Shown piece after piece: positions 26,946 through 63,522 of a stretch of 64,000 nt of DNA (position 1 is the stretch's first letter; the number at the start of each line of letters is the position of its first letter). Position numbers and translations under genes: made by a program. The notes beneath the pieces were generated by a model. It searched no databases and was not told the DNA's origin. It was given only the letters and a program-made list of their open reading frames with translations. Location: assembly GCF_054482595.1 (NCBI RefSeq), contig NZ_CM137008.1; one strand, given 5' to 3'.

Positions 26946-27620
26946 ATGAAAGGATTATCATCTTTACTCATTTTTTCTATGGTCCTTCCTGCACATGCCG
27001 GAATTGTTATCTACGGGACGCGCATTATTTACCCGGCAGAAAATAAAGAAGTGATGGTGCAGTTGATGAACCAGGGAAACCGTTCTTCGCTGCTGCAGGC
27101 GTGGATTGATGATGGCGATACGTCATTACCACCAGAAAAAATTCAGGTTCCTTTCATGTTAACGCCACCAGTGGCAAAAATAGGGGCAAATTCCGGGCAG
27201 CAAGTAAAAATCAAAATTATGCCGAATAAACTGCCCACTAATAAAGAAAGCATTTTTTATCTGAATGTTCTGGATATTCCACCAAATAGTCCAGAACAAG
27301 AAGGTAAGAATGCACTGAAGTTTGCGATGCAAAACAGAATCAAATTGTTTTACCGGCCGGCGGGTATTGCTCCGGTAAATAAAGCGACCTTTAAAAAGTT
27401 ACTGGTAAATCGCAGTGGCAATGGATTGGTGATAAAAAATGACTCAGCTAATTGGGTGACGATTTCGGATGTCAAAGCTAATAATGTCAAAGTCAATTAT
27501 GAAACTATTATGATTGCCCCCTTAGAAAGTCAGAGTGTTAATGTCAAAAGTAATAATGCAAATAACTGGCATCTGACCATTATCGATGACCATGGCAACT
27601 ATATTAGTGACAAAATTTAA
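26946..27620 (+). CDS. yehC: Periplasmic fimbrial chaperone YehC (PapD-like)
   Basis: Signal peptide MKGLSSLLIFSMVLPAHA; position between subunit and usher; RBS aagagg. Confidence 0.8.
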   Translation: MKGLSSLLIFSMVLPAHAGIVIYGTRIIYPAENKEVMVQLMNQGNRSSLLQAWIDDGDTSLPPEKIQVPFMLTPPVAKIGANSGQQVKIKIMPNKLPTNKESIFYLNVLDIPPNSPEQEGKNALKFAMQNRIKLFYRPAGIAPVNKATFKKLLVNRSGNGLVIKNDSANWVTISDVKANNVKVNYETIMIAPLESQSVNVKSNNANNWHLTIIDDHGNYISDKI

Positions 27621-51462: not shown

Positions 51463-51652
51463 AATGACTCCTTGATTGAAATTGTGTATCGAAAACAGCA
51501 TCTAAAGGTGCTGTTTACCGATTAAAGTATGAGCGATTTTCTGATGCCTGCCAGGGCGGAGAGATAATGTCAGTTTGCTGACCATGCGTGGGATAATGTT
51601 GCCGGATCGGGTCTGAACGCCATCTCCGGCTAACAAAATAATGTCGCTAAAA

Positions 51653-52375
51653 CTAAACGATGCGGCAGGCGTCGGCTTCCCAGCGGTAACCGACGCCATA
51701 AACGGCGCGGATAAATGACTGTTCGGCGTCGAGAGATTCCAGCTTGCGGCGCAGGTTTTTAATGTGGCTGTCGATGGTGCGGTCGGTTACTACGCGGTAG
51801 TCGTCATAAAGATGATTGAGCAATTGCTCGCGGGAGAACACTTTTCCTGGTTCGTGAGAGAGCGTTTTCAGCAGACGAAATTCCGCAGGCGTCAGGTCAA
51901 GCATTTTACCGCGCCATGAAGCCTGAAAACGACCTTCGTCGATAATCAACGGACTTTCAGCATCCTGTTGCTGCAATTCGCGCTGCGGTTTGCAACGGCG
52001 CAAAATGGTTTTGACGCGCGCTACCACTTCCCGTGGGCTGTACGGCTTGCAGATGTAGTCATCTGCGCCAATCTCCAGCCCCAGCAGGCGGTCGATCTCT
52101 TCGATTTTTGCTGTCACCATCACGATAGGAATGTCAGAAAAACGACGAATTTCCCGGCACAGCGTCAAGCCATCGGTGCCAGGGAGCATCAGATCCAACA
52201 GGATCAGATCCGGTGGTGTCTGGCGCACATACGGCAGTACCTGATCGCCGTGGCTGATAAGCGTCGGCGCATAGCTCGCAGCACGCAGATAATCAATGAG
52301 CAACTGCCCCAGCTTCGGTTCATCTTCCACGATCAAAATACGCGGTGTGTTTTCGTCGATTGGTAACTCGGTCAT
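51653..52375 (-). CDS. baeR: OmpR-family response regulator BaeR (240 aa)
   Basis: Receiver domain ([14 protein letters not shown]...[14 protein letters not shown]) plus winged-helix output; start overlaps the baeS stop. Confidence 0.95.
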
Positions 52376-53775
52376 ACTTCTCTCTGTAAATCCCGTTCCA
52401 GCGGTAACTCTACTGTAATGCTTACCCCGCCAAAAGGCGAATGGGCAGCAATAATGCGGCCATTATGTGCTTCAACAATGTTCAGGCAAATCGCCAGCCC
52501 CAGCCCGGAACCGCCGCTGGCGCGGTTGCGGGAACCTTCGGTGCGATAAAAACGTTCAAACAATTTTTGTAGCTGATCGTCACTGACACCTGGCGCACTG
52601 TCGGCAAAGGTCAGGCGCACCGTTTTGTCGCGCTGCCCGGCAGAGATTTGCAGGCTGCCGCCGCTGTCAGTGTAGCGCAGGCTGTTTTCCAGTAAGTTAT
52701 TGAATAACTGCATTAAACGGTCGCGATCGCCAAATACGGTAATACTGTCTGGCAGGGAAAATTGCAGTTTCAGGCCACGACTGGCGAATCGTTCGCGAAA
52801 TGCGCCGCCCGCCACTTCCAGCAGTGGGATCAAATCTACCGGTGCTTTTTGATAGGCGAGAGCGCCTTCATCAGACATCGACAACTGATGGAGATCGTCA
52901 ACCAGTTTGGTCAGTGTACCGACCTCCGCCTGTAAAGACGCCACCGTCTCCGGCGTGAATTTACGCACGCCATCCTGAATGGCTTCCAGTTCACCGCGCA
53001 GCACCGCTAATGGCGTACGCAGTTCGTGAGAAATATCGGCCATAAAATCGCGCCGCATTTGCTGGTTTTTCTCCAGTGTGCTGGCAAGCTGGTTGAAGTC
53101 TTGCGCCAGTTTGCCCAGTTCATCTTCACTGGTGGGCGTTACGCGGGTAGTGAAATCGCCCGCCGCCAGTTTGTGCGTGCCATCGACAAGTCGTTTTACC
53201 GGTGCCAGTAAACCGCGCGCCAGCAGAAAAGTGGCAAGTGCCGCGAGTAACGTTGCCAGGGCGACAATCAACCAGCTGGTTTGCCGCTGTTGTTTATCGA
53301 AATTGATATCAGTATTGCGCGTTAACCGCTCAACGGGGGAGGCGATCACCGCGCCAACTTCCGCACCGTTGACCAGAATGGGTCGCCGTGTACCGTCAGG
53401 TGGAATCGGCGCTCGCGGACCAACCAGCACTTTGTTGTTTTGATCAACCACCCAGAACTGGGTACGCCAGCCGTGCGGTGGCATACCCGGGCCGGGTTTA
53501 TCTTCCGAATTATCGTGTTCAAATGAACGCAGGATCTGAAAGACAAAGCGATCATTGTTGCGCAGGAAGCGCCAGTTGCCATGCTGCGCATACTGCTCGC
53601 CAAGCGCATCACTTAACAGTTGTAATCGCTGTTCATTACCATGCTTGATGTAATCAATAAAGCCACGCTCAAAACTGATACGCACCGCCCAGTGCATACT
53701 GATCAGCAAGACAATGCAGGTGGCGAAAATCGCCAGAAACAGTTTGCCGGTAATACCAGGTCGCCAGAACTTCAT
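52372..53775 (-). CDS. baeS: Envelope-stress sensor histidine kinase BaeS (467 aa)
   Basis: HAMP, H-box ([14 protein letters not shown]) and HATPase motifs; overlaps the mdtD stop. Confidence 0.95.
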
Positions 53776-55187
53776 TGCGCGCTCCTTTTTCGCCGCGAAA
53801 TAGCTACATTTTGATGCGTATCGTTCGGCACTCTGGCAAAGATGAACGCCGGAAGGGCGATGATAAACGCCATGCTAAGCCAGGTGTACATAAAGACGGT
53901 TTGTGTGGTGCCGCTGTCGACGCTGACATGCTGCGAACCAAAAAGTCCCAGCAACAGCCCGGCGATGGTGACGCCGATACTCATCGACAATTGCATAATC
54001 ATCGACAGCAGGCTGTTTCCGCTGCTCGCCAGATTGTCCGGGAGATCTTTCAGCGTCAGGGTGTTCATGGAGGAGAAACGCGTCGAGTTGACCATCCCTT
54101 GTAAAAACAGGACGAACGGCAAAACGTAGTACCAGCCCAGCAGAGCGGTAGTCATAAACAACAGGGTGACCAGCGACAGACCCAGCGTGGTCGCTACCAG
54201 TACCCGACGATAACCAAAGCGATTCACCACCTGTACAACAATTCGCTTCATTCCCATGCTGCCAAGCACCATCGGGATCATCATCAGTCCGGCATGAAAC
54301 GGCGAGAAACCGAGGCCAATTTGCAGGAAAACCGGTGTCATAAAGGGCAACATGCCACTGCCAATACGTCCGGCAAAGCTCCCCGCCAGGCCCAGCGAAA
54401 AGGTACGAGTGCGGAACAGTTTCAGACTGAAAAGAGCGCGGTTGTTATTTCTGGCGTGCAGCAGATAAAGCACCAGTGCCACCACACCAACTGCGACCAG
54501 GCCAGCAATCGCCAGCGGCGATAAACCTGTACCTTTACTGCCGTCCAGCGCCAGGGTTAATACCGCCATGCCAACCGCCAGCAATAAAAAGCCGGAAAGA
54601 TCAAAGCGCCGCGTCTGCATGGTGTAGTTCGGCATTAACAGCAATGTGGCGATCGCACCGATAATCCCCACCGGAATGTTGATCAAAAAGATCCAGTGCC
54701 ACGACGCGTACTCCACCAGCAGACCGCCGAGCGCCGGACCGAGCAGCGGACCGACCTGACCGGGTAACGTGACAAAGGTCATCGCCGCCATATATTGCTC
54801 GCGCGGTACGATTTTCATCACCGTCAATCTGCCGACCGGCACCATCATCGCGCCGCCAACGCCCTGTAACGCGCGTGCCAGCAACAGTTCGTTCAGCGTG
54901 CCGGAAAGCGCGCAAAACAGTGAACCGAGAGTAAACAGCACGATGGCGGTAAAGAAAATATTGCGCACGCCGACTTTGTCCGCCAGCCAGCCGCTGGCGG
55001 GCAGCATCACCGCCACGGTCAGCACATAAGAGACAATGACCATGTGCATATGCAACGGACTTTCCCCGAGGCTTTGCGCCATTGAGGGAAGGGCGGTGTT
55101 TACGATGGTGGTGTCCAGCGACTGCATAAAGAAGCCGAAAGCCACAATCCACAATTGCCAACGGGTGCTGTCGGGAAGATCTGTCAT
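53772..55187 (-). CDS. mdtD: MFS transporter MdtD (471 aa)
   Basis: 14-TM MFS-like protein lying between mdtC and baeS. Confidence 0.9.
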
Positions 55188-58100
55188 TTACTCGGTTACC
55201 GTTTGTTTAGGTTTACGCGAAAAACGCAGCCGCAGACGGTCGAAAAAGAGATACACCACCGGCGTGGTATACAGCGTAAGGAGCTGGCTCATTACCAGTC
55301 CGCCGACAATGGTGATCCCCAGGGGTTGCCGCAGCTCCGAGCCGTCGCCGCCCGACAATACCAGCGGCAGCGCACCAAACAGCGCCGCCAGGGTAGTCAT
55401 CATAATCGGGCGAAAACGCAGCAGACAGGCCTGGAAAATAGCTTCCTGCGGCGTCAGGTTACCGTGCCGTTGGGCTTCAAGCGCAAAATCGACCATCATA
55501 ATGGCGTTTTTCTTCACGATGCCGATTAATAGCATGATCCCTATCAGGGCGATTAGGCTGAACGGGGCATTGAACAGCTCCAGCGCCAACAGCGCTCCAA
55601 CGCCCGCCGAGGGCAGGGTGGAGAGAATCGTCAGCGGATGTACGTAACTCTCGTAAAGGATACCCAGCACGATATACACCGTGGCGATGGCGGCGATAAT
55701 CAGGATCACCTGCGAGTTCATCGTCTCCTGGAACACCTGCGCCGTGCCGGCAAAACTGCCGCGCACCGTCGAAGGCACACCAAGCTGGGTCATTGCGCGA
55801 TCGATCGCCGCACTGGCGTCCGAGAGCGATTTTCCGGTCGGCAGGTTAAACGAAATGGTCGAGGCCGCCGATAATCCCTGATGATTCACCGATAGTGGGG
55901 CATTCGCCGGTTGCCATTTAGCGAAATACGACAGCGGGATCGCTTTGCCTTCGTTATTGATAACGAACATTTTTTCCAGCGCACTGATGTCCTGGGTATA
56001 GCGCGGATCCACTTCCATCACCACTTTATACTGGTTCATCGGCTGGTAAATGGTCGAGATTTGCCGCTGACCGAAGGCGTTATTTAACAGACTGTTGGCG
56101 GCTTGTACGTCGATTCCCAGCCGTGCCATGGTGTCGCGGTCGTAAACCAGATTCATCTCCGCGCCGTTATCCTGCTGATCGGAGTTCACGTCCGCCAGTT
56201 CCGGCAACGTCGCCAGTTTTTTGCGGATTTTCGGCTCCCATTCTCGCAGTGCCGCCAGGTCGTCGGATAACAACGTGTACTGGTAGCTGGCGTTCGACTG
56301 ACGCCCACCAACGCGAATATCCTGTACCGCCATCAGGAACAGATTCGCCCCCGGTTCTTTCGCCAGTTTTACGCGCAGACGGTCGATAATTTGCTGCGCC
56401 GTTTCGCTGCGTTCGTCGCGTGGCTTGAGGGTGATAAACATCATCCCGCTGTTCACTCGCGAACCGCCTGTAAAGCCGGTGACATTATCCACTGCCGGAT
56501 CGTCACGGATAATTTTCATGAAATCCTGCAACTTACCGCGCATCGCCTGAAACGAAATACTCTGATCCGCCTGAATCCCGCCCATCAACACGCCAGTGTC
56601 CTGCTCCGGGAAGAAGGTTTTCGGGATCGAGATATACAGCCAGATATTCAGCGCAATGGTGCCAAGCAGCACCACGCCCACCAGACGGGTATGATTGAGC
56701 ACCCATTTCAGTGACTTGCCGTAGCCTTGTTGCAGGGCTACCAACATGCGACCAAAACCACGCAGTCGCTTTTGCTCGCGCGGCTTGCTGGCTTTCAGCA
56801 TCCAGCCACACATCATTGGCGTTAATGTCAGAGAAACCAGCAACGATATACCAATGGCGACAGAAAGCGTCACGGCAAATTCGCGTAACAGTCGGCCCGG
56901 CAATCCGCCCATCAACAGCAGCGGCAGGAACACCGCCACCAGTGACAGACTCATCGACAGCACCGTAAAACCGACTTCGCGAGTACCTTGCAGTGCGGCT
57001 TGCAACGGTTTCATTCCCGCTTCCAGATGACGTGCAATGTTTTCCAGCACCACGATGGCGTCATCCACCACGAAACCAGTAGCGATGGTGAGCGCCATTA
57101 ACGAAAGGTTATTGAGACTGAATCCGCACAGGTACATCGCCGCAAACGTACCAATCAGCGAAACCGGCACCGAAACGGCGGGAATAATAGTGGCGCGACC
57201 CGAGCGCAGGAATAAAAACACCACCAGAATCACCAGCGCCACCGAGATAATCAGCGTTTGCTCGACTTCTTCCAGCGAGGCGCGAATGGTGGGGGAGCGA
57301 TCCTGGGCAATTTGCAGATCAATCGCCGCCGGAATGGTTTCCTGCAACTCCGGTAATTTTGCCCGGATGCTGTCAACCGTCTGGATAATATTGGCTTCCG
57401 GCAGTTTGCGGATCATCAGTAAAATAGCCGGTTTGGCGTTGGTCATCCCGGCGTTGCGCACATCCTGCACTGAGTCGGTCACCGTCGCCACATCGCCCAG
57501 ACGAACCGCGCCGCCGTTGTTGTAGTGAATAATCAACGGCTGATATTCAGCGGCGGTTTTTAGCTCATCATTGGTCTGGATCTGCCAGCGGTGAGTGCCA
57601 TCTTCCAGCGCGCCCTGCGGTTTACGCACGTTGGCATTGCTGACGGCGGTGCGTACGTCGTCCAGCGACACGCCCTGATTAAACAGCGCCTGCGGATTCA
57701 GCCCGACGCGTACGGCGGGCAGTGAGCTGCCGCCGACATCGACATCACCAACACCGTCGATTTGCGAAATCGTCGGAGCCAGCTGCGTCGAGGCGAAATC
57801 GTACAGTTCACCCTGCGAATAAGTATCGGACGTCAGCGTGAGGATCATAATTGGCGCATCCGACGGGTTCGCTTTGCGATAGGTCGGGCGGCTGGGCATC
57901 CCACTGGGCAGCAAACTTTGTGCAGCGTTGATCGCCGCCTGCACATCACGCGCTGCGCCGTTGATATCCCGGTCAAAATCAAACTGCAAAATAATACGCG
58001 TGCTGCCGAGCGAACTGCTGGAGGTCATTTCACTGACTCCGGCAATGCGCCCAAGTGAGCGCTCCAGCGGCGTGGCAACGGAAGACGCCATTGTTTCTGG

Positions 58101-58265
58101 TGACGCACCGGGCAGCGAGGCGCTGACCATAATCACCGGAAAATCGACCTGCGGCAGCGGGGCGACCGGCAGCATACGGAAGCCCAGTATGCCGCACAGG
58201 GTAATGGCAACCGACAGTAAAATCGTCGCCACCGGACGGTAAATGAAGAGGGCAAAAAACTTCAC
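55188..58265 (-). CDS. mdtC: RND multidrug efflux permease MdtC (1025 aa)
   Basis: AcrB-family length and motifs; directly abuts the mdtB stop. Confidence 0.95.
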
Positions 58266-61200
58266 TTACGCCTCCTCTTCATGACGGGCAAAGCGGCTTT
58301 TGGTCCACAATGCCAGGCGGTCGAACAGCAGATAAATCACCGGCGTGGTGAACAGCGTCAGCACCTGGCTGACAATCAGGCCGCCGACCATGCCGATACC
58401 TAACGGACGACGCAGTTCCGCGCCGACCCCGGTACTCAACATCAGCGGCAGCGCGCCAAGCAGAGCCGCCAGGGTGGTCATCAGGATCGGACGAAAACGC
58501 AACAGACAAGCCTGGTAGATTGCCTCGCGCGGCGACATGCCTTGCTCGCGCTCGGCAGCCAGCGCGAAGTCGATCATCATGATGGCGTTCTTCTTCACGA
58601 TACCGATCAGCAAAATAATGCCGATAATCGCAATCACATCCAGTTCGCTACCAGCAATCAGCAACGCCAGCAGTGCGCCAACCCCTGCGGTGGGTAGCGT
58701 CGAGAGAATGGTGATCGGGTGAATAAAGCTCTCGTACAGAATGCCGAGCACGATATACATCGCCACCACCGCCGCGACAATCAGCCAGACAGTGCTGCCC
58801 AGCGCCGACTGGAAGGCGAGGGTGCTGCCCTGGAACTGCGTGGTGATATCCACCGGCAGATTCAGCGTCTTTTCGGTGTCCATAATCGCCTGCACCGCAT
58901 CGCCCAGCGAATAGTTATCCGGCACGTTAAAGGAGATGGTCGTTACCGGGAACTGATCCAGATGGTTGATGGAGAGCGGCGCAAAACGCTGCTCAATTTT
59001 GGCAATTGAGCTTAGCGGCACCACGCCGCCGTCGCTGCTGGTCAGGCGAATGGTATCCAGCGCCGCGAGGCCTGGGGTATTTTCGGTGTTGTGCTCCAGC
59101 ACCACGCGATACTGGTTGGCCTGAGTATAAATAGTGGAAATCAGCCGCTGACCAAACGCGTTGTACAGGGCGTTATCGACATCCGCCATGCTGATCCCCA
59201 GACGGCTGGCGCTGTCGCGATCAACATTGACATACGCCACCAGCCCTTTGTCCTGCCAGTCGCTGGAGACATCAGAAAGCTGTGGCAGTTGCTGGAGTTT
59301 TTCCATCAACTGTGGCACCCAGGTACTGAGCGCATCCAGTGACGTGGCCTGCAAGGTAAACTGGTACTGGGTGCGGCTGACCTGAGTATCAATAGTCAGA
59401 TCCTGCGTTGGTTGCAGGAAGAGATCGACGCCCGGCACTTTATCTACCGCCGTTTGCAGACGGGCGATGACTTTTTGCACCCGATCATCACGTTCATCCA
59501 ACGGTTTGAGGTTGATTTGTAAACGTGCACTGTTCAGCGACGGGTTAGTGCCATCAACGCCAACAAATGAGGTCAGGCTTTGCACTGCCGGATCCTGCAA
59601 AATCACGTCCGCGACCTGGCGTTGTCGCTGGGCCATATTGGCAAAGGAGCTGGATTGCGGTGCCTGCAAAGTGCCCTGAATAATGCCATTGTCCTGTACC
59701 GGGAAGAAACCTTTCGGAATGAACACCCACAGCAGCACGCTAAGCAGCAGCGTGCTGAGTGCCACGCTTAAGGTCAGCCACGGATGATTCAGCACTTTCG
59801 CCAGTCCACGACCATAGGCGGCGATTATCCTGTCGAACATTTTTTCCGAGGCACGGGAGAAGCGGTTCTGTTTACGCAACGACTCCTGGCTGAGCATCCG
59901 CGCGCACATCATCGGTGTCAGGGTCAGCGACACCACCGCTGAGATCAAAATCGCTACCGCCAGGGTAATAGCAAATTCGCGGAACAGTCGCCCGACGATA
60001 TCGCCCATAAACAGCAGTGGGATCAACACCGCAATCAGTGAGAAGGTCAGCGAGATAATGGTAAAGCCGATTTCACCTGCGCCCTTGAGCGCCGCCGCCA
60101 ACGGTTTTTCGCCTTTTTCGATATAGCGGGAAATGTTTTCGATCACCACGATGGCGTCATCGACCACGAATCCGGTGGCGATAGTTAACGCCATCAGTGT
60201 CAGGTTATTGATTGAAAAATCGAGAAACACCATAACCGCGAAAGTGCCGATTAACGACAGCGGTACAGCAACACCGGGAATGATGGTCGCCGGAATGTTG
60301 CGCAAAAACAGGTAGATAATCATGACTACCAGCGCGATAGCCATCATCAATTCAAACTGAGTATCATCGACGGATGCGCGGATATTGGTGGTGCGATCGG
60401 AAAGCACTGTCACCTTCACCGATTTCGGCAGACTCTCAGTGAGCTGTGGCAGCATCTGCCGAATGCTGTCGGCGGTGGAGATAATGTTAGCACCGGGCTG
60501 GCGCTGAACATTCATCACAATGGCCTGTTCTTTGTTCGCCCACGCGCCGAGCCAGCTGTTTTCTGCACCTTGCTCTACAGTTGCGACATCGCCCAGACGA
60601 ATTGGCGCGCCGTTCTGGTAGGCGATGATTAGCTGGCGATACTCTTCGGCGGATTGCATCTGGTCGTTCGCGGAAAGCGTGACCGCACGGGAAGGGCCGT
60701 CGAGGCTACCTTTTGCCGAGTTAACGTTAGCGCCGGTAATGGCGGTGCGCACGGTTTCGCTGGTCAGGCCGAGGGCGGCAATCGCCTGAGCGTTAAGTTT
60801 GACGCGAACAGCCGGACGCTGACCGCCGGAAAGCGTCACCAGGCCGACGCCGGAAATCTGCGAGATTTTCTGCGCGACGCGGGTTTCCACCATATCTTCC
60901 ACTTGCGTCATCGGCATGGCGGTTGAGGTGACGGCGAGCGTCATGATCGGCGGATCTGCCGGGTTCACTTTGCTGTAAACCGGCGGGTTAGGCAGATCGC
61001 TCGGTAGCAGGTTAGTGGCGGCGTTAATCGCGGCCTGCACTTCCTGCTCGGCGACATCGAGCGGTAATGTTAGCTGGAACTGCAAAGTGATAACTGACGC
61101 ACCGCCGGAACTTTGCGACGACATCTGTTTCAGGCCAGACATCTGCCCGAACTGGCGTTCTAGCGGCGCGGTAACGGCAGAGGTCATGACATCCGGGCTG

Positions 61201-61388
61201 GCACCTGGGTAGAGCGTGACCACCTGAATGGTCGGATAGTCCACTTCCGGCAGCGCCGAAACGGGCAGGGCGCGATAACCGATAATCCCGGCGAGTAAGA
61301 TCGCCACCATCAGCAGCGTGGTGGCCACAGGACGCATAATAAACAGGCGCGACGGGCCGCCTGTGCTGCTCGGGGGTAACACCTGCAT
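58266..61388 (-). CDS. mdtB: RND multidrug efflux permease MdtB (1040 aa)
   Basis: AcrB-family paralogue of MdtC; start overlaps the mdtA stop by 1 nt. Confidence 0.95.
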
Positions 61389-62635
61389 CAGGAGCGTGCT
61401 CCTTTTTTCGCGTATTCGCGGCTGGTGGCTTTCTCTTCCGGAGTAGTGGCGCTCTGGGCTTCCACCACTTCCACTTTCGCCCCTTCGGTCAGGCGATCAA
61501 TGCCGTCTGTCACCACGCGATCGCCCGCAGAAATACCTGCACGGATCACCACTTTCTGACTGTCCTGAATGCCCGGCGTCACCAGATGTTTGCTGACCTT
61601 GTTTTCGCTATTCAGCACCCAGACAAAATGGCCTTCATTGCCCATTTGCAGGGCGGCTGTTGGGATCACTACGGCGTTTTGTTCGGTGTCGACTAACATG
61701 CGCGCGTTAACAAACTGATTGGGAAACAGCGCATCATCATGATTATTAAAGCGTGCTTTCACTTTAATCGTACCGGTAGTGGCATCGATTTGGTTATCTA
61801 GACTTAACAGCGTGCCTTCACTTAATTTCTTCGAGTTGGTGCGATCCCAGGCTTCTACCACCAGCGGTTTTCCGGCTTTCTGCGCCTGCACTACGGTAGC
61901 GATATCGCTTTCCGGCAGGGTAAAGACTAAATCGATAGGATGCGTCTGGGTGATCACCACGATCCCGGTGGTATCACCACTGGAGATTTGGTTACCAACA
62001 TCAACCTGCTTGAGACCAACGCGACCATCGACTGGTGCGGTAATCCGGCTCCAGTCGAGTTGCAGCTGCGCGCTGGCAACGCTTGCTTCATCAGCCTTAA
62101 TGGTGCCTTCGGTTTCACTGACCAGCGCCTGTTGGGCATCCAGCTCCTGGCGGGAAACGAGATTGGTTTTTGCCAGTTGTTGATAACGCGCCAGGTCACG
62201 GCGGGCGTTGGCAAGCGTGGCTTTATCTTTTGCCAGTTGGCCCTGGGCTTGTGCTAATGCAACTTTGAACTGGCTGGGGTCAATTTCTGCCAGTAAATCG
62301 CCTGCTTTGACCTGCTGGCCTTCCTGGAAATGTAACGCTATCAGTTGGCCGTCCACGCGGCTGCGCACCGTAACGGTATTAGCGGCGGTAATGGTGCCAA
62401 GCCCGGTGAGGTAACGCGGAACTGCCTGTTCTACGGCGGTCGCCGCCTGAACCGGGGCTAATGGGCCGGAACGCATACCACGTCGACCACCCGCTGGCGA
62501 TTGCTGCGCTTGTTTCGTCGCCCCTGGGGCTGCACTCCGGGAGTCATTGCGGCCTTGCCAGAACCAGAATGCGGCGATGGCGGCGATAACCACCACGATT
62601 ACGATTACCCAACGGGATTTATAACTACCTTTCAT
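61388..62635 (-). CDS. mdtA: RND membrane-fusion (periplasmic adaptor) protein MdtA (415 aa)
   Basis: ORF trimmed to [19 protein letters not shown] (ATG at 62633-62635); HlyD-like adaptor. Confidence 0.9.
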
Positions 62636-62683
62636 CGTTAAGAGTTTCTCTTCCTGAAACGTTTCGCGGAATGATACTAGTGT

Positions 62684-62714
62684 AGCCAGCCAATAAGGGA
62701 GAAAAATGGAGGAA
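62684..62714 (-). promoter_or_regulatory. Candidate BaeR box upstream of mdtA
   Basis: Minus strand reads ttcctccatttttctcccttattggctggc, close to the recalled BaeR consensus TTTTTCTCCATDATTGGC. Confidence 0.55.
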
Positions 62715-62854
62715 TTATGAAACACTGTCTGGAATCGTCTGAATGACGGGCACATTTGCGAGCACGCATCCAGTAATAACACATGAAACTATTTTATCTA
62801 CGCGTTAGCGATAGACTGCTTGCATGGCGAAAGGAGGTAAGCCGACGATTTCAG

Positions 62855-63000
62855 CGGGACGCTGAAACGGGAAAGCCCCTCCCGAGGAAGGGGCCATAAA
62901 TAAGGAAAGGGTCATGATGAAGTGGATCATCATCGTGGTGCTCTTAGTCATAAGCTTCCCGGCTTACTAAGACTACCAGGGCGGGGGAAACCCCGCTCTA
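62855..63000 (-). ncRNA. Candidate Sib antisense antitoxin sRNA, copy 1 (boundaries approximate)
   Basis: Inferred from the ibs/sib architecture, in which the antisense sRNA fully overlaps the ibs ORF; hairpin elements at both ends of the unit. Confidence 0.4.
62914..62970 (+). CDS. Ibs-family hydrophobic toxin peptide (18 aa, MMKWIIIVVLLVISFPAY)
   Basis: ATGATG start, wholly hydrophobic peptide ending in AY, RBS aggaaaggg; location between mdtA and yegL matches the recalled K-12 ibsA/ibsB-sibA/sibB locus. Confidence 0.65.
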   Translation: MMKWIIIVVLLVISFPAY

Positions 63001-63179
63001 CCCTCACTCCTGAAAGTATGCCTTCACGATAAGATTGTCAATCCGCAGGCTTTGCAGTCTGCGATCCTGCCAGCAAATATTCTTTGCGAGTCGTTACGCA
63101 ATAATCACAGAGGAAACTATTTTGTTCACGCGTTAGCGATAGACTGTATTCAGGGCGAAAGGAGGTAAGCCGACGATTT

Positions 63180-63330
63180 CAGCGGGATGCTGAAACGGGA
63201 AAGCCCCTCCCGGAGAAGAGGGCTTTTAATAAGGAAAGGGTTATGATGAAGCACGTCATCATACTGGTGATACTCTTAGTGATTAGCTTCCAGGCTTACT
63301 AAGAACACCAGGGGGAGGGGGAAACCTCTC
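63180..63330 (-). ncRNA. Candidate Sib antisense antitoxin sRNA, copy 2 (boundaries approximate)
   Basis: As copy 1; minus-strand hairpin gccctcttctccgggaggggc followed by a T-rich run just beyond the ibs start. Confidence 0.4.
63243..63302 (+). CDS. ibsA: Ibs-family hydrophobic toxin peptide (19 aa, MMKHVIILVILLVISFQAY)
   Basis: Near-identical to recalled IbsA (MMKHVIILVILLVISFPAY); A versus B assignment uncertain. Confidence 0.65.
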   Translation: MMKHVIILVILLVISFQAY

Positions 63331-63522
63331 CCTAACCCTCACTCCTGAAATTATGTCACTCCGCCCTTAGTGTCAATCGACGGCTCTCCGTTCTTGCGAG
63401 GCGAATAGCAAAATTTTCTGCGCCGCCGGGCCTAATTCTGAAAGTTTCTTCGTTTGCTCTTATTTCATTATTGCAGTCGGTATGATACCGGACCTCGATA
63501 ATTCTCTAAGAAAGGATTTCTT

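Follow-up and report, generated by a model that had tools for sequence, protein, structure and literature searches.

Two questions are raised by the mdtABCD-baeSR locus: how many genes belong to the operon, and which bases upstream of mdtA serve as the operator for BaeR, the response regulator that the operon itself encodes. MdtABC is an RND pump in which MdtA is the adaptor, MdtB and MdtC are the permease subunits and TolC is the partner. As part of one envelope stress response, mdtABCD-baeSR matters for resistance, both intrinsic and induced, to novobiocin, bile salts, certain β-lactams, metals and tungstate. The operon, the position of its BaeR box and its autoregulation are already known from the literature and from genome annotation. 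Here, we correct the gene count of an initial annotation to six, and we propose a modest refinement of the operator, the conserved part of which would lie just 5′ of the published box. The analysis covers a 64,000-nt stretch of contig NZ_CM137008.1 (assembly GCF_054482595.1), referred to below as the window; negative positions are counted from the mdtA ATG.

Gene content of the locus

Six genes lie on one strand in the order mdtA-mdtB-mdtC-mdtD-baeS-baeR (window 62635-51653, minus), identical to the RefSeq annotation:

61388..62635, minus strand: mdtA, periplasmic adaptor subunit of the RND pump MdtABC (415 aa; ATG start and TGA stop codon)
58266..61388, minus strand: mdtB, RND permease subunit (1040 aa; ATG start)
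55188..58265, minus strand: mdtC, second RND permease subunit (1025 aa; GTG start)
53772..55187, minus strand: mdtD (iceT), MFS transporter (471 aa; ATG start)
52372..53775, minus strand: baeS, envelope-stress sensor histidine kinase (467 aa; ATG start)
51653..52375, minus strand: baeR, OmpR/PhoB-type response regulator (240 aa; ATG start)

All six proteins passed the NCBIfam cut-offs, five of them with equivalog models and MdtD with a subfamily model. MdtA matched NF008589 (the MdtA/MuxA equivalog) with 721 bits against a cut-off of 391, in agreement with the RefSeq name mdtA, and MdtB matched the MdtB/MuxB model NF007798 with 2243 bits (cut-off 1584). The corresponding values were 2210 bits for MdtC (NF007905, cut-off 1774), 969 bits for MdtD (NF007799, cut-off 426), 930 bits for BaeS (NF007837, cut-off 603) and 450 bits for BaeR (NF007982, cut-off 380). 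BaeS contains HAMP (PF00672), HisKA (PF00512) and HATPase_c (PF02518) domains, and BaeR contains a receiver domain (Response_reg, PF00072) and a winged-helix domain (Trans_reg_C, PF00486). The match of BaeR to PDB 4B09, ‘BaeR’, spans all 240 residues (E = 3.5e-159). By Pfam and PDB 4B09, the two proteins thus have the regulator and kinase domain sets of an OmpR/PhoB-family two-component system.

The GTG start of mdtC is also the RefSeq start; the MdtC profile match begins at residue 1, and a strong ribosome-binding site, GAGGAGG, lies 5 nt upstream. Mechanical extension of the mdtA reading frame reaches a GTG at 62782 (464 aa) and crosses the promoter (window 62636-62782, minus). We prefer the ATG at 62635 because the NCBIfam profile aligns from residue 4 and because RefSeq annotates this start.

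A 2.2-kb query from the locus was present in 5422 of 5426 complete E. coli genomes, with 100% identity in several strains (e.g. AR_0369). Between yegL and mdtA, and co-directional with mdtA, are two SIB_RNA antitoxin sRNAs, sibB and sibA (Rfam RF00113, 140 and 150 bits; window 62899-63041 and 63228-63376, minus), each with an Ibs type I toxin ORF opposite, on the plus strand. These elements are the ~330-bp repeat that can be recognised in the unprocessed sequence 5′ of mdtA. About 235 nt separate the end of sibB from the mdtA ATG in MG1655. Several differences from K-12 are located in the sib region, for example at 62923-62926.

BaeR occupies the mdtA promoter, which carries a near-consensus box

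The published consensus for the BaeR box is TTTTTCTCCATDATTGGC (Nishino 2005), in the form in which it is quoted in PMC3799227 and PMC3915751. According to the initial annotation, a sequence resembling this box lies 50-80 bp upstream of mdtA, and we found one in that interval:

62706-62689, minus strand: candidate BaeR box TTTTTCTCCCTTATTGGC, -71 to -54

This 18-mer agrees with the consensus at 17 of 18 positions (one mismatch), and is the sole match in the 64 kb on both strands, even when up to three mismatches are allowed. An alternative BaeR consensus, TCTNCANAA, was reportedly proposed by Yamamoto in 2008. Exact copies of this 9-mer are absent from the mdtA promoter, and three occur elsewhere in the window, where 7.45 would be expected by chance. 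A relaxed CTNCA core is present in the mdtA promoter at -76, with one-mismatch versions at -87 and -66.

From -148 to -1, the mdtA promoter is base-for-base identical to that of E. coli K-12 MG1655, for which BaeR ChIP-exo data have been published. Two BaeR peaks were reported upstream of mdtA, peak_5 at MG1655 positions 2153931-2153967 (PMC7657598, Data Set S2) and peak_6 at 2153972-2153998 (PMC7657598). Transferred to the window, they correspond to:

62684..62720, minus strand: ChIP-exo peak_5, -85 to -49, covering the BaeR box
62679-62653, minus strand: ChIP-exo peak_6, -44 to -18, overlying the -10 region and the probable start of transcription

Expression of the operon is BaeR-dependent under stress. 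In 5% ethanol, the log2 changes caused by deletion of baeR were -4.0 for mdtA, -3.8 for mdtB, -3.6 for mdtC, -3.4 for iceT/mdtD and -4.6 for baeS, such that the five assayable operon genes fell 10- to 25-fold (16-fold for mdtA), whereas deletion of baeR in unstimulated cells left the operon genes unchanged (PMC7657598). BaeR has also been described as the regulator of its own operon (PMC3219618), and the mdt-bae operon is among the reported BaeR binding sites (PMC2731931). Given the identity of the promoter to that of MG1655, the published ChIP-exo and RNA-seq data mean that positive autoregulation has already been demonstrated experimentally. The autoregulation suggested by the initial annotation is therefore borne out by a peak over the box and by BaeR-dependent expression that includes baeS; a lack of BaeR binding in ChIP was named there as evidence against the proposal, and the published experiment gave the opposite outcome (PMC7657598). 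Since peak_5 spans both the 18-mer and the repeats upstream of it, the peak does not by itself distinguish which of these bases BaeR contacts.

A conserved promoter element lies 5′ of the published box

The 160 nt preceding mdtA were aligned for 80 Enterobacteriaceae, and mean majority-base fractions were calculated for successive segments:

-160 to -112: far upstream, conservation 0.44
-111 to -88: Block A, conservation 0.77
-87 to -66: TTTCATAATTCCTCCATTTTTC, conservation 0.94
-65 to -54: 3′ part of the 18-mer, conservation 0.58
-53 to -45: spacer, conservation 0.89
-44 to -36: -10 region TAGTATCAT, conservation 0.99
-35 to -1: 5′ UTR, conservation 0.83

In these 80 sequences, a conserved element, TTTCATAATTCCTCCATTTTT (-87 to -67), lies just 5′ of the 18-mer box. 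Conservation within the promoter is lowest (58%) in the 3′ part of the 18-mer, which includes ATTGGC. In genera other than Escherichia and Citrobacter, the sequence closest to the consensus is found 10 bp further upstream, on the upstream element.

A generic sigma-70 scan gave as many promoter-like matches in the locus as the mean of shuffled sequences, and we therefore placed the -10 region by conservation:

62671..62679, minus strand: putative -10 region TAGTATCAT, -44 to -36, 99% conserved, under ChIP-exo peak_6

We infer that the -10 hexamer lies within this region. No conserved -35 element was detected upstream of it in the 80-sequence alignment; the ATTGGC-bearing part of the 18-mer occupies the -35 position. 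The lack of a conserved -35 element fits an activator-dependent promoter. One sigma-70 scan match upstream of the conserved -10 region (62743-62714, TTCAGA-18-CATAAT, 9/12) was set aside, the number of hits being equal to the shuffle mean.

Block A (CATTCAGACGATTCCAGACAGT; window 62723-62746, minus) has a majority-base fraction of 77% in the 80 Enterobacteriaceae and contains a loose direct repeat, TTCAGAC/TTCCAGAC. The CpxR box is GTAAA-N5-GTAAA. Inspection of the block from -111 to -88 by eye revealed no convincing match to this box.

Phased half-sites as a candidate operator

We constructed a 10-nt half-site matrix from six sites in the spy and acrD promoters only, which were picked by eye, leaving out mdtA. 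Between -250 and -1 of mdtA, the three best scores were at -76, -66 and -87, which define the following elements:

-87, minus strand: R1 half-site TTTCATAATT, CTNCA-type
-76, minus strand: R2 half-site CTCCATTTTT, CTNCA-type
-66, minus strand: R3 half-site CTCCCTTATT, CTNCA-type
62692..62722, minus strand: proposed full operator R1-R2-R3, with spacing of 11 and 10 bp

The three elements are direct repeats separated by about one helical turn, and the two best tandem half-site scores in the whole window, considering both strands, are those of the mdtA promoter. Across the 80 Enterobacteriaceae, R1 and R2 together are 94% conserved. The third-best tandem score in the window, CTGCACCATCACTTCTTTATT (27043-27062, minus), is antisense inside an ORF (26946-27620, plus) and was judged to be due to chance.

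On sequence grounds, the best reading of the mdtA operator is a set of three CTNCA-type half-sites in phase, to the bases of which BaeR would bind. R1 and R2 would constitute a deeply conserved core and R3 a lineage-specific addition. Given that the evolutionarily conserved part adjoins the 18-mer on its 5′ side, the 18-mer probably represents no more than a portion of the operator. In the simplest reading, BaeR would recognise phased CTNCAnnnT half-sites, in keeping with a winged-helix regulator of the OmpR/PhoB family, and the 18-mer and the 9-mer TCTNCANAA would be two views of such a half-site.

The main alternative is that the 18-mer (-71 to -54) alone is the complete operator, bound by one dimer, and that the conserved sequence 5′ of it is an UP-like element or a site for another factor, such as CpxR. 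Three BaeR targets of E. coli carry the 18-mer (with no mismatch at spy and one each at acrD and mdtA), a literature table gives one BaeR binding site at the regulator's own promoter (PMC3219618), and CpxR has been reported as a co-regulator of mdtA (PMC3160322). However, conservation follows the upstream repeats (94% from -87 to -66 versus 58% from -65 to -54), the best match to the consensus moves to the upstream element outside Escherichia and Citrobacter, and -87 and -76 score as half-sites with a matrix to which mdtA contributed no sequence. Moreover, spy of MG1655 has a distal tandem of CTTCATAATCTCTGCAAAATC at -221 and -210 in addition to its exact 18-mer at -156 to -139, and the upstream BaeR ChIP-exo peak (-218 to -198) is on the distal tandem and not on the 18-mer, which is outside both spy peaks (PMC7657598). 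No BaeR peak was found at acrD in the same ChIP-exo data, and the published peak file has no CpxR peak at mdtA, the two BaeR peaks accounting for all mdtA entries (PMC7657598). We consider the 18-mer an unlikely candidate for the complete operator, although one to be taken seriously.

The phased half-site reading can also be put in a stronger form. The functional operator would then be the tandem TTTCATAwTTCCTCCATTTTT (-87 to -67; window 62722-62702) rather than the 18-mer; the 3′ two-thirds of the 18-mer, CTCCCTTATTGGC, would be an auxiliary third half-site, specific to Escherichia and Citrobacter, in the -35 position; and the 18-mer and TCTNCANAA would reduce to one CTNCAnnnT half-site. We regard the chances of this stronger form as evenly balanced. 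If it is correct, motif scans based on the 18-mer miss BaeR sites in most other Enterobacteriaceae, and the refined operator would change the choice of motif for predicting BaeR regulons in those species.

Operon extent and remaining alternatives

Direct reading of the five junctions confirmed the coordinates and the types of overlap or abutment given in the initial annotation:

61388, minus strand: mdtA/mdtB junction, TGATG, 1-nt overlap of the mdtB ATG with the mdtA TGA stop
58266/58265, minus strand: mdtB/mdtC junction, TAAGTG, abutment with GTG directly after the TAA stop
55188/55187, minus strand: mdtC/mdtD junction, TAAATG, abutment with ATG directly after the TAA stop
53772-53775, minus strand: mdtD/baeS junction, ATGA, 4-nt overlap
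52372-52375, minus strand: baeS/baeR junction, ATGA, 4-nt overlap

Junctions of 1, 0, 0, 4 and 4 nt leave no room between the genes for internal promoters or terminators. The TGATG overlap of mdtA and mdtB is conserved in all 77 assessable orthologous loci of the Enterobacteriaceae (about 30 genera). Terminator-like sites in the region are not above chance (19, versus 13.7 ± 3.8 in shuffles). A weak sigma-70-like match is present inside baeS (52489-52462), such matches being at chance level in the region; an internal promoter serving baeSR alone could nevertheless exist.

The single polycistronic unit proposed in the initial annotation is supported by genome annotation and by the coordinated, BaeR-dependent expression of its genes in published RNA-seq, with log2 changes of -3.4 to -4.6 in the baeR deletion providing indirect support for one transcript over all six genes (PMC7657598). 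Almost certainly, window 62635-51653 is the E. coli mdtABCD-baeSR operon, with one activator-dependent promoter, 5′ of mdtA, producing a single six-gene mRNA.

At the mdtA/mdtB junction, the ribosome-binding site of mdtB can form a hairpin (AGGAG-CACG-CTCCT; window 61390-61403) with the final codons of mdtA. The stem, formed by the mdtB GGAG and the CTCC just before TGATG, is kept in most of the orthologs assessed, with a variable loop. This hairpin is possibly a translational-coupling device, by which translation of mdtB would depend on ribosomes finishing mdtA; constraint on the coding sequence of the MdtA C-terminus could also account for its conservation. Read on the other strand, this palindrome precedes a run of T residues and is scored as terminator-like.

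The initial annotation described the operon as having seven genes. NCBIfam and RefSeq support the operon but not the number, since RefSeq annotates six genes and five junctions separate six genes; we conclude that ‘seven’ was a miscount. The candidate for a seventh gene is the next one in line after baeR:

51462-51130, minus strand: yegP, co-directional, starting 190 nt after baeR

We searched the 190-nt spacer (window 51463-51652) for an intrinsic terminator and found none that was convincing, the fold being no better than that of shuffled sequences (z = -1.2); consequently, the 3′ end of the unit is not defined by sequence. The spacer contains a weak A/U-rich hairpin, AAACAGCA...UGCUGUUU, and then UUCGAU, about 50 nt before yegP. 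Read-through that co-transcribes yegP with mdtABCD-baeSR, giving a seven-gene unit, would be favoured by the orientation of yegP and by a spacer in which a weak hairpin followed by UUUUCGAU takes the place of a strong terminator. Nonetheless, we consider it very improbable: the gap of 190 nt compares with -4 to 0 nt at the junctions within the operon; the text that gave the count of seven lists only five junctions; the unit is given as mdtABCD-baeSR in RefSeq, in the literature and in the ChIP-exo study alike; and yegP is missing from the differential-expression rows for the baeR deletion, in which the operon genes are all present (PMC7657598).

We dismiss the reading of the box as a fortuitous T-rich stretch without regulatory function. 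Although the promoter region is AT-rich and matches with up to three mismatches are expected in ~19 of 100 shuffled windows, none of 100 dinucleotide-preserving shuffles contained a match with at most one mismatch. The box also has the expected position and strand, and this reading is already contradicted by published expression and ChIP-exo data, including an in vivo BaeR peak over the box in the identical MG1655 sequence.

Proposed mechanism

We propose that envelope stress leads BaeS to phosphorylate BaeR, and that BaeR-P then binds the direct-repeat half-sites that lie in phase between about -87 and -54. These half-sites, which stop 9-12 bp short of the -10 element on its upstream side, would substitute for a -35 element, and BaeR-P would recruit RNA polymerase by analogy with PhoB at pho boxes; we know of no contact between BaeR and sigma-70 region 4. 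Transcription would start at about -30 ± 5, 7 nt downstream of the predicted TAGTAT/TATCAT hexamer. With baeS and baeR at the end of the transcript, activation of the operon by BaeR-P would close a positive autoregulatory loop, and stop codons that overlap or abut the next start codon may permit translational coupling down the operon.

Comparison with known systems

The window and E. coli K-12 (b2074-b2079) have in common the six genes of mdtABCD-baeSR, their order and their junction types. They differ by scattered SNPs in coding regions and in the sib/ibs region, with no visible functional difference; the SNPs scattered through the locus indicate that the window is not from K-12.

Within E. 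coli, the spy and acrD promoters share with mdtA an 18-mer of the form TTTTTCTCC-N3-ATTGGC and CTNCA-type half-sites in 11-bp phase. The mdtA promoter differs in having three contiguous half-sites, spaced by 11 and 10 bp, that end next to the -10 element.

PhoB-dependent promoters, with class II-like activation, have pho boxes, ~11-bp direct repeats just upstream of the -10 element that replace the -35 element, and the PhoB operon is self-activated. Although the BaeR half-site, CTNCAnnnT, is not the pho-box motif, the mdtA promoter appears to be similarly organised, with ~11-bp direct repeats just upstream of the putative -10 element and a regulator encoded in the operon that it activates.
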